A DNA stretch of 64,000 nt from Escherichia phage ECBP2. A program made the position numbers and the translations under genes. Below are positions 12,974 to 62,470 of this stretch, one piece after another. Positions within the stretch are counted from its first letter, which is position 1; each line of letters begins with the position of its first letter. Location: the sequence record NC_018859.1; one strand, given 5' to 3'. Below the pieces are notes generated by a model that did not search any database, was not told the DNA's origin, and saw only the letters and a list, made by a program, of their open reading frames with translations.

Positions 12974-12984
12974 TAATGTATATA
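12974..12984 (+). promoter_or_regulatory. TAATGTATATA promoter-like motif inside a GTCCTA...TAGGAC inverted repeat
   Basis: Exact 11-mer, 35 nt upstream of the ATG at 13019; same motif recurs at four other intergenic sites. Confidence 0.5.
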
Positions 12985-20377: not shown

Positions 20378-21027
20378 TATTGAATCATCCCTTGAAGATC
20401 TTCTTTATCAAAGTGCTTCTCTACTACCGCTTCATACAGATCACGATTCTCTGCATAACGGCGATAGAAAGTTCCGTGTGAAATTCCCAGCTCCTGCTGG
20501 ATGTGATCATGAGGTATTCCAAGGAAGAGCATAGAGAACATGCTTGCCATTTTCTTGGTATCCATAATATCACTTAAGTCTTGGAAGAAGAAAAAGATTC
20601 TAGATTCCAAGAATGGGTCTCCAGTAGAGTCATGCTTATCCATCGCAATCTCTAAAGGACTTTCCCACGAGTTCATCTCAGGAGGTCTAAACATATCAGC
20701 CTCTGGAATAGAGTAGATACGTCGGTCTCCAACTGTCTGACGGTTAGAACGAATTGACCAGATGATATTCTTAACACGATAAGTCATGTGCTCAATATCT
20801 TTTTCATCAGTGAGCAGAAGTTCTTCTTGCTTTGCAAACACAAAACGCCAAGCGTTCAGTAACACTTCCTGAGCAACATCCTCTGCTTCGTGATAATCTT
20901 TAATGTCATACATAAAATACTTATGCACAACTTTCCAGTTCTCCCGATAGAATTCATCGAAGGTTGGATAATACTTAATAGGAATGCCATGAATACGATA
21001 GCGTGTAGGTGTTGTCTTTTTCTTCAT
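20377..21027 (-). CDS. phage-encoded sigma factor-like protein
   Basis: [15 protein letters not shown] resembles sigma region 2; C-terminal [17 protein letters not shown] resembles a region-4 helix-turn-helix. Confidence 0.5.
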
Positions 21028-21824: not shown

Positions 21825-22565
21825 TTAGAAAGGGCTGTCATCTTCTTCAAAGGTAGATTGCGGCTCTTCATTAATAGTAGGGATACTTGGAGTCGCGTCT
21901 TTCTGTTCAGTGTCAGAAGCGCGAGTAACTTCACGACCGGCCAGAGGAATGTTTTTAGCATCGTTAGCTTGAGTCAGAAGGTTACGTTGGAATGGAAACA
22001 TAGCTTGATAAGCAGCCAAGTTGGCGTCAGTTTCAGCGTACGGTTCGAAGAAGATAAGGTCGCTACGAGGAGCACCTACTGCATCACGATACTTGGTCGG
22101 GATTGGAGTGATGCTCTTGATGGAGTTTTTCTTCTCACCAGCTTTGTTGGTGTAAGAGTTAACTAGAATGTTGACAGGCTGACCAAGCAGCATATCTTTG
22201 AACCAACCCAAATCACCTTTCAGTGCTTGAACACTTGGGTCGATCATTTTAATTAGGTTCAGAATACCAGAGTTCTTAGCTCGTGGGTTTACATCGAAGG
22301 ATTTAAACTGACAAGCAGGACGTGGGTCCAATGCCTTACCATCACTATCTGTACCAGTTGCGTCAACACCAATCAGTTCAAATGCCAAGTCCATACGGAA
22401 AGCTGGGTTCTTAGGAGTAACTGCTTTGGTCTTAGGGTCAATCCAAGGGTCACGATTGTGAACACCTAAACCTACTACACGAACAATTCGTGCTTCGTAC
22501 TCGCCATCAGGGATTACATCGTAGTTGGATTTACGGGATACAGACAGTTCAGGGATCATAGACAT
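21825..22565 (-). CDS. putative ssDNA-binding protein (acidic C-terminal tail ending in Phe)
   Basis: 246 aa ending EEPQSTFEEDDSPF, like the acidic C-tails of SSB / T7 gp2.5; first gene after a TAATGTATATA motif. Confidence 0.4.
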   Translation of the reverse strand: MSMIPELSVSRKSNYDVIPDGEYEARIVRVVGLGVHNRDPWIDPKTKAVTPKNPAFRMDLAFELIGVDATGTDSDGKALDPRPACQFKSFDVNPRAKNSGILNLIKMIDPSVQALKGDLGWFKDMLLGQPVNILVNSYTNKAGEKKNSIKSITPIPTKYRDAVGAPRSDLIFFEPYAETDANLAAYQAMFPFQRNLLTQANDAKNIPLAGREVTRASDTEQKDATPSIPTINEEPQSTFEEDDSPF

Positions 22566-22622
22566 ATTAATATTTCCTTATATAAATTTAAGATTGTTGC
22601 TCTCTTTGAGCGGTTGGTATAC

Positions 22623-22633
22623 TATATACATTA
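22623..22633 (-). promoter_or_regulatory. TAATGTATATA promoter-like motif (- strand)
   Basis: Exact 11-mer about 55 nt upstream of the ATG at 22565. Confidence 0.5.
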
Positions 22634-22695
22634 CACCTATACAGATAAGGTTCTATTATACTATAACCTTTTTGGTAGTAGATAACAGTAAGTAG

Positions 22696-22706
22696 TAATG
22701 TATATA
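22696..22706 (+). promoter_or_regulatory. TAATGTATATA promoter-like motif (+ strand, no downstream ORF)
   Basis: Exact 11-mer pointing rightward into about 200 nt of non-coding sequence and then antisense to the next gene. Confidence 0.35.
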
Positions 22707-22913
22707 TGGTATAGTTAGTAAAACTATTGCACGGGACCGACGACTATAAGGCGCGGACAACCACCTCTCATAAGTTTGTTAGAAATTGAGAGACTACCGG
22801 AAGGGCAGGAGACACCTGCGAGATAAAAATAGAGAATTAAGGAAATCCTTGATTTAGGTTGAGGACTCCTAGGACTTTGATTCTCTATTAAAATCAAAAG
22901 AAAACTAATTAAC

Positions 22914-23492
22914 TTACCATTCAATAAACTGATTTAGATTAGTATACTTAACTTCTCTCTGAAACTGAAGATTAGATTCTCTCTGTTTAGTAAGAAGATT
23001 AAGTTCATCTTCCTTTCTTTTATCAAACTCTTTTCTAATCTCTTGCAGAGACACAGCTCTGTAATCAATTTGTTCCATAGAAGTACAAAAGTATCTCCAA
23101 TCTTTGATAGTAGAGTTATGAGTATGAGCATAGATATTATACTTTCCTCTCATTTCATCAGAGTGAATAGGAATATGAGTTACCCAAAACTCTTTGTACT
23201 TATAATCACCACTGATGTGTCTAAAGACTTTCATCATATCAGGGAGAAGTTCTAATCTGTCATGATTTCCTAAGACAAGATGTTTCTCTCCTTTTACTTC
23301 AGCGATGATATCAAGGGCATACTTTTCAAACACCCAATCACCGGTAAAGAAAGTTTTATCACGTTTAGTAACATGGTCAAACGCTGCTAAGATAGCTTTG
23401 TCGTGTTCTTCAATACTACTAAACCTCTTCCTAAAGCTACAGATGTTACGATGGCCTAGGTGACCATCACCTGCAAAATAAACTTCAGCCAT
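22914..23492 (-). CDS. calcineurin-like metallophosphoesterase
   Basis: YFAGDGHLGH ... FTGDW ... LGNHD match metallophosphatase motifs I-III. Confidence 0.65.
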   Translation of the reverse strand: MAEVYFAGDGHLGHRNICSFRKRFSSIEEHDKAILAAFDHVTKRDKTFFTGDWVFEKYALDIIAEVKGEKHLVLGNHDRLELLPDMMKVFRHISGDYKYKEFWVTHIPIHSDEMRGKYNIYAHTHNSTIKDWRYFCTSMEQIDYRAVSLQEIRKEFDKRKEDELNLLTKQRESNLQFQREVKYTNLNQFIEW

Positions 23493-23652
23493 TCTCGTAT
23501 GTGTCCTCATAATATGAGTAGTTGAAGGATTCAGCTTTCGTTTCAGCCTCCTCCATATCGTCTGTTTCCAGAATCACTCTCCAGCCAGAACCGTTAGGAT
23601 ATTCAGCTCCCTCATCTAGCCAGACTTTGTATCGTTTAGATTGTGCAACCAT
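23485..23652 (-). CDS. small acidic protein (paralog of 24220-24399)
   Basis: RYKVWLDEGAEYPNGSGWRVILETDDMEEAE vs KYSVWFNEEEEGFDEVGGWVNILNTDDIEEAE. Confidence 0.4.
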   Translation of the reverse strand: MVAQSKRYKVWLDEGAEYPNGSGWRVILETDDMEEAETKAESFNYSYYEDTYENG

Positions 23653-34748: not shown

Positions 34749-34759
34749 GTATATACATT
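34749..34759 (-). promoter_or_regulatory. AAATGTATATA promoter-like motif (- strand)
   Basis: Ten of eleven positions match the TAATGTATATA motif; sits in the 50-nt gap between genes. Confidence 0.4.
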
Positions 34760-34784
34760 TGAGAGTTATCATATCTACTACCAA

Positions 34785-41064: not shown

Positions 41065-41250
41065 TTATTCTACTTCGAAGTGTTTGATCACACCAGTCAA
41101 CACATCAGATTGGAATGTACCTACCAACTCCACTCCTCGGAAGAAGTTAACACTTGTTCCAAGCGATTCAAAACGCTCTGCTTGAATATCTAGAGATTGA
41201 ATATTACCTTCTGAGTTTACTGTACGAAACATGATTGTGTATTTATTCAC
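41065..41250 (-). CDS. hypothetical protein
   Basis: 61-aa ORF. Confidence 0.35.
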   Translation of the reverse strand: MNKYTIMFRTVNSEGNIQSLDIQAERFESLGTSVNFFRGVELVGTFQSDVLTGVIKHFEVE

Positions 41251-41489
41251 AGAGTTGTTACTCCCTTATCTTCTTGTGCAATTGCGATGATACGCTCAAC
41301 ACATTCCATTGAATATTTATCACCTCGTTTAAGGAAGGTGACAATTGCAGAGAACTGATTACCAATCATTCTCTTGTTTGTGATTCCAAACTCTTCACAG
41401 AGTTGGTTAATAGCTTTACGAGAACCAACAATCAGAGGTTCTTTTTGTTCGGTCATTCCACGACTGATCAAATCTTCGATAGACAACAT
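41247..41489 (-). CDS. hypothetical protein
   Basis: 80-aa ORF, ATGA overlap. Confidence 0.4.
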   Translation of the reverse strand: MLSIEDLISRGMTEQKEPLIVGSRKAINQLCEEFGITNKRMIGNQFSAIVTFLKRGDKYSMECVERIIAIAQEDKGVTTL

Positions 41490-54294: not shown

Positions 54295-54370
54295 TGGTGC
54301 ACCCTACAGGATTCGAACCTGTAACCAACGACTTAGAAGGTCGCTGCTCTATCCATTGAGCTAAGGGTGC
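54295..54370 (-). tRNA. tRNA-Arg (anticodon UCU), CCA encoded
   Basis: GCACCCTTAGCTCAATGGATAGAGCAGCGACCTTCTAAGTCGTTGGTTACAGGTTCGAATCCTGTAGGGTGCACCA folds as a cloverleaf: 7-bp acceptor, GCTC/GAGC D-stem, anticodon loop CUUCUAA, T-arm ACAGG-TTCGAAT-CCTGT. Confidence 0.85.
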
Positions 54371-61499: not shown

Positions 61500-62470
61500 T
61501 AGGAGAATGTTTAAATTGTTAAAGAGCGGTAAATCTATCAACGTGCTTTCTCACGTTATGCAACTGTTAGCCGTTGTTACGCTTTTCACTGAAGCGGTGA
61601 TTTGCTCAAGTGATGCTCATTATGGACCATGTTGTTTTTGCCGTCAATCACTTTTTTAATCTTTTTCGTCGTTCCCGCTATTGGGAGGATATATCAACCC
61701 GCTTTATTGGGTTGAAGATTAAGCGATGAGGCTTAACCCATGATTCATATTGTTAAAGAGCGTTTAGCCTTTTATAGTGTCTGCTAATCACTACATCATT
61801 AAAGGCTTACTTGTTCATTAACGGGGCGCCTAAGCCCGAACTACCCGCTGCACTATGTGCCACCTTTCCCGCGATACGTTGATTTGGGAACTAGTTAACG
61901 TTGTTTTGTTAACTTGTGGTTAGTATGGACTACCTTAACCACGTTTGCAACCTCTTTTTTATCATCTTCTTTTATTCTTTTCCCTTATCTCGCGTGAATC
62001 TATGCGAAAGGGCAAGATGATAAGTCTGATTTGTCTTTTAGGAATCTAGTGCGCTTTCAAGCATTGACCATTTGAAAGTATCGAACAAATGAGGCTTATT
62101 TTGTTGCTCATCGTCCGCATGTTCACGTATGAATCAGGAATCAATTCTAGTGGTCAACTAAGCGCCTTATAGTAATGACGTTCCCGCCACCTGTAAGACA
62201 AATCATATTTTTAAAGAGCGGGATTTTTCAAGTCATCGCTGACTATGCTCACTATATATCAGGCTTTTTCCGGTGTCAATACTCTTTTTCAAGTATTTTC
62301 ACTTTCTAGCCTGATTTTTAAAGAGCGGGGCAATTTCTTGCCTTGTATGTTTTACATCGTACCCGATGAAATGAAGTATACATTAATCAGATGAGGTTGC
62401 AATAGGGTAAAGCAAATTATTTTAAACTTTTTCACTATAGGGAGGTAAAAGAGCGGGCGCACGTGATACA
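61500..62470. repeat. dispersed copies of an AAAGAGCG(G) motif in a non-coding region
   Basis: TTAAAGAGCGG-like sites at about 61515, 61753, 62214, 62325 and 62449, plus 63701; no ORF of 60 aa or more between 60793 and 62352. Confidence 0.45.

Follow-up and report, generated by a model that had tools for sequence, protein, structure and literature searches.

The locus and its promoters

The stretch of DNA analysed here, called the window below, comprises 64,000 nucleotides (nt) of Escherichia phage ECBP2 (NC_018859.1), and the element in question is a promoter in a spacer near 22.7 kb, which points rightward into a conserved block for which we propose a structured non-coding RNA. The 1.8 kb around the site match 97 phage records at 83-97% identity, all of them E. 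coli or Shigella podophages of the phiEco32 group, and by these matches the window is a phiEco32-like coliphage of the Gordonclarkvirinae, the matched phages belonging to the genera Kuravirus, Suseptimavirus and Nieuwekanaalvirus. The genes around the site are all encoded on the - strand, and the site is located inside a cluster of replication and nucleotide-metabolism genes. The features from which the argument starts are the following.

21825-22565, - strand: gene of 246 amino acids (aa), homolog of phiEco32 gene 40 (86% identity)
22566-22913: spacer of 348 nt between two - strand genes
22914-23510, - strand: gene of 198 aa, calcineurin-like phosphoesterase
22623-22633, - strand: divergent gp36 promoter motif (reverse complement of TAATGTATATA), fronting the 246-aa gene; homolog of the known phiEco32 promoter P40
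22672-22684, + strand: -35 block TTGGTAGTAGATA, identical in sequence and spacing to phiEco32 P68 and to the P68 homolog of the window
22696-22706, + strand: -10 element TAATGTATATA, an exact 11-mer of the gp36 consensus tAATGTATAtA, with T22699 as -12T and G22700 as -11G
22711-22714, + strand: predicted transcription start, A22711 by P68 numbering and 22712-22714 by a distance of 6-8 nt after the 11-mer
34752-34783, - strand: P68 homolog, the sole twin in the window of the promoter at 22672-22706

The initial annotation of this DNA had pointed to a promoter motif on the + strand at 22696 without a downstream open reading frame (ORF). The motif is indeed present, as TAATGTATATA at 22696-22706, and on the + strand of the spacer neither ATG nor GTG occurs after 22711. 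The divergent motif that had been assigned to the - strand genes was likewise found, at a distance of 60 nt, and it corresponds to the entry 'between CDS37 and CDS38' in table S2 of phage SU10.

Promoters recognised by gp36 have the -10 consensus tAATGTATAtA, located 6-8 nt upstream of the start (PMC4281155). Within it, AATGTA is centred at -11.5, and -12T and -11G are contacted by gp36 (PMC12276001). P68 is the promoter in the open complex with gp36 and gp79 that was solved by cryo-electron microscopy, in which the C-terminal domain of gp36 touches -37G and -34A; mutating either of these two bases abolishes transcription, and the contacts at -37G, -34A, -12T and -11G were confirmed by mutagenesis (PMC12276001). 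In the spacer of the window, TGGTAGTAGATA (22673-22684) sits 12 nt upstream of AATGTATA on the + strand. With A22711 as the start, G22674 falls at -37 and A22677 at -34, the equivalents of the bases contacted by the C-terminal domain at P68. The proposal of an orphan promoter is thereby strengthened: the site carries both recognition elements of the validated P68, and they are invariant in all relatives examined.

The two elements differ in how much they contribute to this identification. The exact 9-mer of the -10 motif occurs five times in the window, as compared to 0.56 expected, and none of 100 shuffled sequences reached five. With one mismatch allowed, there are 22 occurrences for 18.9 expected, i.e. 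no enrichment, and the bare -10 motif is therefore weak evidence when taken alone. The 32-nt composite TGGTAGTAGATA-N12-AATGTATA, on the other hand, is found twice in the window (22673, + strand, and 34783, - strand), where 0.00 occurrences would be expected even if three mismatches are allowed; phiEco32 likewise has exactly two copies. In the SU10 promoter table, the TGGTAGTAGATA block appears once, at P68.

We also observed that gp36 promoters of the late class carry a AAGACCTA block approximately 22 nt upstream of the -10 element (12974-12984, + strand, in the window; 9102 and 26015, + strand, in the related locus L015). Because this upstream block is a different one, the site at 22696 belongs specifically with P68, and the comparison suggests that gp36 uses two distinct upstream elements, AAGACCTA in the late class and TGGTAGTAGATA in the P68 class. 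A fifth exact TAATGTATA lies at 62377-62385 (- strand), towards the right end of the window, and no ORF in the surrounding stretch exceeds 65 aa. It has no exact counterpart in phiEco32 and could be another orphan gp36 promoter, or a chance occurrence. Between the divergent promoters there is furthermore an inverted repeat, AAGGTT...AACCTT (22647-22670), which may be an operator, or chance in AT-rich DNA. It is not robust, since in some relatives another repeat takes its place and in others only a weak one is present.

In phiEco32, six gp36 promoters were reported, upstream of genes 6, 13, 26, 40, 58 and 68 (PMC4331800). That study searched solely in the sense direction of the genes, a procedure that would miss the + strand site at 22696. 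It is thus apparently a seventh gp36 promoter that is unlisted in the literature, the primary mapping study (Pavlova et al. 2012, J Mol Biol 416:389) lying outside our comparison. Among the matches listed, the GenBank records annotate neither a promoter nor an RNA on the + strand here; in the records examined, the spacer is either left blank or given assorted 'hypothetical proteins', which differ from one record to the next.

Conservation among related phages

For the comparison with relatives, 31 loci were fetched from GenBank, IMG/VR and metagenomes, and these represent 22 distinct versions. Each of these has the promoter with the same element behind it. By BLAST, the spacer was matched in all 97 related phage records, at 71-88% identity, and an alignment of 14 phages shows no variation in the -35 block, in the -10 element or in the distance between them. 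Phages of the myPSH2311/ES17 type have an insertion of approximately 175 nt between the divergent promoters, which carries a - strand ORF of 49 codons (~660-823 in locus L010); despite this insertion, the + strand promoter retains GGTAGTA and the -10 motif. The start codon of the inserted ORF abuts the + strand -35 block, which reads GGTAGTATATC there.

Downstream of the promoter, conservation over the 1.5 kb examined peaks at 22800-22889, with a majority identity of 0.96-0.98 per column. This is at least as high as in the best parts of gene 40, as compared to approximately 0.8 for the phosphoesterase gene. A covariance model of the element gave a match of 109 bits, with one copy per genome. 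The same model found no match near the gp40 homologs of Salmonella phage 7-11, Cronobacter phage GAP52 and Proteus phage J3S, nor near those of Aeromonas phage LAh_8, Salmonella phage PKM.Hi.22.6 and Vibrio phage Vp_R1. In such distant relatives (Grimontviridae, Lahexavirus), the spacer upstream of the gene-40 homolog measures about 50-100 nt, and in Vp_R1 about 240 nt. Since these spacers show no match to the covariance model, the element is confined to the Gordonclarkvirinae.

The right flank of the element is mosaic, with the phosphoesterase gene in the window, the 35-aa gp41 in phiEco32, gp40.1 in LAMP and unrelated sequence in a metagenomic relative, and conservation drops sharply at the base of the last hairpin of the predicted RNA (P4, see below). 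Because both sequence and genes to its right are mosaic (22893-22913 and the homologous positions in loci L007, L014 and L035), the element marks a recombination boundary.

Anatomy of the predicted RNA

The functional unit is approximately 22672-22892, instead of the 22696-22913 that had been delimited at first. The predicted RNA starts at about 22711 and would measure approximately 180 nt in the window and 155 nt in most relatives. Its parts are the following.

22711-22727, + strand: P1, 5'-terminal hairpin AUAGUU-AGUAA-AACUAU, placed exactly at the predicted start and covarying
22733-22796, + strand: variable middle domain, here of the GC-rich type B, defined by alignments; hairpins P2a (22737-22756) and P2b (22765-22792)
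22797-22892, + strand: invariant 3' domain of 95 nt, defined by covariance model and per-column conservation; fold predicted
22805-22819, + strand: P3, hairpin GCAGG-AGACA-CCUGC in the invariant 3' domain
22820-22830, + strand: A-rich linker in the invariant 3' domain
22829-22888, + strand: P4, composite hairpin of approximately 60 nt with the base stem AUAGAGAAU/AUUCUCUAU, including AAGGAAAUCCUU and a tandem AGGACU repeat

Covariation is found at the 5' end. Across the seven distinct versions of P1, 97.6% of cells are paired. Two pairs are altered on both sides (U-A/G-C in one, C-G/U-A/A-U in the other), and one G-C pair has become G-U in the phiEco32-type sequences. The covariation score of P1 was reached by none of 500 shuffles, and in slid controls the paired fraction fell to 24-50%. 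In P2a, one C-G pair is swapped for U-A between the window and the other type-B phages.

The middle domain exists in two unrelated types. Type B measures approximately 65-70 nt and is carried by the window and by 10 of the 97 phage records; type A, of approximately 45 nt, is the common form among the relatives. The locally GC-rich segment that the initial annotation had singled out is thus real (+ strand, ~22730-22765) and corresponds to the type-B hairpin P2a, but it is the least conserved part of the element, restricted to these 10 of 97 relatives, and not its core. The versions of P1, the types of the middle domain and the variants of P4 occur in differing combinations, which argues for recombination between modules.

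Two observations concern the sequence of P4. The tandem repeat AGGACU-CCU-AGGACU (22862-22876) reads AGGGACU-CCU-AGGGACU in most relatives, such that both copies change together. This change travels with the haplotype of the 3' flank and could be a concerted change or a single recombination block. Moreover, UAAGGAAAU in the RNA (22838-22846, + strand) also occurs, without any difference, as the ribosome-binding region of gene-40 mRNA (22572-22580). Such a match is close to what chance would give, and phages with AAGGAAUCC have a shorter one.

As to the strand, the + strand folds more stably than the - strand in all 17 of 17 versions, with mean energies of -45.5 and -38.3 kcal/mol, respectively, and the alifold consensus is -39.2 kcal/mol for the + strand as compared to -29.3 kcal/mol for the - strand. 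Structure prediction, which had been named at the outset as a check on the RNA, gave z-scores in the window of -4.5 (+ strand) and -1.7 (- strand). The G-U pair in P1 of phiEco32-type phages would read as an A-C mismatch on the - strand. The direction of the promoter, the fold bias in 17 of 17 versions and this G-U pair favour the + strand as the strand of the selected RNA.

With respect to coding potential, the variants differ by indels of 1, 2 and 1 nt in the invariant domain (4 nt in sum), and a further 1-nt indel lies inside type A. On account of the indels of 1, 2 and 1 nt, there is no reading frame that all variants share.

Searches for known families and targets

Rfam was searched at gathering and at permissive thresholds with both the type-B RNA of the window and the type-A RNA of phiEco32, and no family reached its gathering score, the best E-value being 0.1, to an unrelated snoRNA. 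ARAGORN detected no tRNA or tmRNA at the site. No match was found by blastn against 5,426 E. coli genomes at E <= 10. A scan of 185,579 bacterial genomes for the core motif returned three hits (Streptomyces and metagenome-assembled genomes of Acidobacteriaceae and Candidatus Angelobacter), which were dismissed as chance matches with covariance scores of at most 18 bits.

Inside the phage, the longest complementarity to the RNA was 12 nt (E = 0.6), and the best energy in an RNAduplex comparison with 153 start regions was -39.3, the mean minimum for shuffled RNAs being -39.2; both methods are insensitive to short seeds. A sponge of the CsrB/RsmZ type, which would titrate CsrA, was considered and rejected: GGA occurs seven times for 3.5 expected in the RNA of the window (p = 0.03), and four times for 2.8 expected in the type-A RNA (p = 0.29). 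The features of a base-pairing small RNA of the Hfq type were found in part wanting, the + strand having neither a Rho-independent terminator nor a U-tail after P4.

Neighbouring genes

The gene-40 homolog (21825-22565, - strand) has no Pfam hits and no sequence matches in the PDB. Its C-terminus, ...EEPQSTFEEDDSPF, is an acidic tail (...FEEDDSPF) that resembles that of the bacterial single-strand-binding protein SSB, and two GenBank records label it as a single-strand DNA-binding protein. It is thus a probable single-strand-binding protein. Homologs of the two transcription proteins were located in the window by tblastn, gp36 at 20383-21027 (- strand, 81% identity) and gp79 at 41250-41489 (- strand, 80% identity). 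The sole find of ARAGORN in the window is the following.

54295-54370, - strand: tRNA-Arg (anticodon TCT), corresponding to the tRNA-Arg annotated in phiEco32

A proposed gp36-dependent non-coding RNA

The explanation that we favour, with a probability of roughly 0.6, is that this seventh gp36 promoter, of the P68 sub-class, yields a discrete, stable and structured non-coding RNA that acts on its own. It builds on what was observed here, namely the identity of the promoter, its conservation and that of the block behind it, the lack of a conserved ORF, the covariation in P1 and P2a, and the fold bias towards the + strand. The small RNA that the initial annotation had put forward as a candidate therefore stands as far as a conserved, single-copy non-coding block, a covarying P1 and the predicted + strand fold can carry it; that it is transcribed, where it ends, that it is stable and how it acts is what we infer. 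On this basis, the spacer RNA is a new non-coding RNA candidate in a well-studied model group of phages.

In the mechanism that we propose, the promoter would fire rightward, opposing all neighbouring genes, once gp36 and its co-activator gp79 have taken over the host RNA polymerase in the middle phase. The RNA would begin with a protective 5' hairpin, followed by an exchangeable middle domain and then by the invariant 95-nt 3' domain. The large terminal hairpin P4 probably sets the 3' end of the RNA and probably doubles as the terminator of the leftward operon on the - strand. The 3' domain, finally, is probably recognised in a sequence-specific manner by a protein or complex, rather than by antisense pairing with the phosphatase mRNA. 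The RNA most likely functions independently, given that the 3' domain is fixed at all positions whereas the gene on its right differs between phages. A protein ligand is favoured because the promoter is a dedicated one with two elements, because hairpins lie at both ends of the RNA and because the loops are conserved along with the stems; it is also favoured by the lack of an Hfq-type U-tail, by the lack of detectable target complementarity and by the changing neighbour on the right.

Several points weigh against this explanation. Neither RNA-seq nor start-site mapping of this phage group turned up in the searchable literature. On the + strand, P4 is not followed by a U-tract: the sequence reads UUAAAAUC in the window and UUUAAAAG in phiEco32, with only UU or UUU followed by AAAA, and a consensus terminator scan flags nothing at the site. 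A discrete 3' end on the + strand would for this reason need weak termination, Rho, or processing or trimming back to the hairpin. The searches described above gave no target, no partner and no known RNA family. The pairs of P3 and P4 never vary, such that covariation is silent on the fold of the 3' domain, and this invariance could equally reflect a function at the level of DNA or of the - strand.

Two of the alternatives survive best. The first of them, which we regard as unlikely though it is the best placed of the alternatives, is that the promoter serves a replication origin, the transcript or an R-loop priming or activating the replication of phage DNA and the conserved block being the origin proper. 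A phage-specific promoter of the middle class without a gene, inside a cluster of replication and nucleotide-metabolism genes and next to the gene of a probable single-strand-binding protein, would fit an origin well, as would the single copy per genome and the conservation of every nucleotide of the downstream block, which is to be expected of a DNA site that is read on both strands. However, no AT-rich unwinding element was found downstream of the promoter, where the transcribed region has approximately 41% GC and is strongly structured. A search for iterons found none, and the GC skew follows the direction of transcription and gives no signal at 22.7 kb. Furthermore, the covarying 5' hairpin and the G-U pairs are signs that a folded RNA, and not duplex DNA, is under selection.

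The second, likewise unlikely and ranking after the origin, is an element that works only on the - strand or as DNA. The block would then be the terminator and 3' untranslated region of the leftward operon, and the + strand promoter would be silent or would serve solely to block read-through through convergent transcription, so that genes 40-27 are insulated and depend on P40. It draws on the following feature.

22820-22888, - strand: P4 read leftward and then UUUUUAUCU, -18.2 kcal/mol, with an AT-rich stem base; not called by the consensus scan

It is a probable terminator of the leftward operon, of which the phosphoesterase gene is the last. Its UUUUUAUCU is a much better terminator tail than any on the + strand, and the block sits exactly between the upstream operon and the P40 promoter. 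On the other hand, a terminator does not need 95 invariant nucleotides, as terminators usually drift, and the scan does not call P4 as one. P1, P2 and P3 are conserved or covarying even though a - strand transcript would reach them only after its U-tract, the - strand gives the weaker fold in 17 of 17 versions, and -35 and -10 elements that are invariant and identical to those of P68 are hard to explain if the promoter is silent.

A more specific version of the favoured explanation is that an abundant middle-phase RNA binds and redirects a protein, be it a host factor, a defence protein or a phage protein of replication or transcription. The 3' domain would then be a scaffold and the type A or B domain a swappable specificity module that is traded by recombination. 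We consider this version doubtful.

The initial annotation had the transcript run antisense to the metallophosphatase gene, and a cis-antisense regulator of whichever gene lies to the right, the phosphoesterase here, could act by pairing or by collision of polymerases. The stop codon of the phosphoesterase gene is only 24 nt past P4, the + strand has no strong terminator, and any leftward mRNA that terminates at P4 must have a 3' end complementary to the 3' domain. As a function, antisense control is nevertheless not supported and we judge it improbable: the block itself ends approximately 24 nt before that stop codon, conservation stops sharply at the base of P4, and the right neighbour is not conserved, many relatives having gp41, gp40.1 or unrelated sequence in this place. 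A very small protein encoded in the spacer on either strand is the least probable explanation, since the assorted 'hypothetical proteins' that GenBank places over parts of the spacer vary by record, the + strand lacks ATG and GTG, the indels of the invariant domain total 4 nt, and the one frame that type-B RNAs offer, of 20 codons with a TTG start, has no ribosome-binding site, is buried beside P1 and shifts in length through a 1-nt indel in type-A phages.

Significance and comparison with known systems

PhiEco32 is a model for a phage-encoded sigma factor and for the gp79-mediated switch from host to phage transcription, and the promoter set described for it had six members, all of them serving genes. 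If the favoured explanation is true, a dedicated non-coding RNA is among the products of the takeover machinery, transcribed from the sole twin of the structurally characterised P68, and the sequence of this RNA is conserved nucleotide for nucleotide across three genera of coliphages that are candidates for therapy. Two promoter bases would provide a genetic handle on the need of a lytic phage for such an RNA, or else on the replication origin of the group. The finding also corrects the GenBank annotation of the spacer.

The closest known counterpart is P68 itself, which comes from the same phage group and shares the -35 block TGGTAGTAGATA, the gap of 12 nt and the AATGTATATA -10 element. However, P68 heads an operon of middle genes, with a leader of 35 nt and then gene 68, whereas the promoter at 22696 opposes the surrounding genes and has no ORF.

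Promoter-primed replication is found at the primary origin of T7, with the promoters phi1.1A/B, and at oriF and oriG of T4, with middle-mode promoters, and these origins have an AT-rich unwinding element just downstream. The element described here resembles them in that a phage-specific promoter of the middle period serves no gene and lies in a region of DNA metabolism. It differs in that the region downstream is a predicted folded RNA with a covarying hairpin and has no AT-rich tract.

With bidirectional intrinsic terminators, the element shares the A-tract, the long hairpin and the U-tract on the - strand, as well as the position between convergent transcription units. The stem of approximately 60 nt, which is AT-rich at its base and internally branched, the tail of only 2-3 U on the + strand and an invariance far beyond that of terminators set it apart.

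The stable RNAs of T4 and the non-coding RNAs of Pseudomonas phages, the latter of which came from transcriptome mapping (PMC10914365, PMC7318152), are likewise short, intergenic and structured products of lytic phages to which no function has been assigned. There is no relationship to them in sequence or by Rfam, and the starting point is the reverse one: in those virulent phages the RNA was seen, whereas in the phiEco32 group it is the class of the promoter that is known and the RNA that is predicted.
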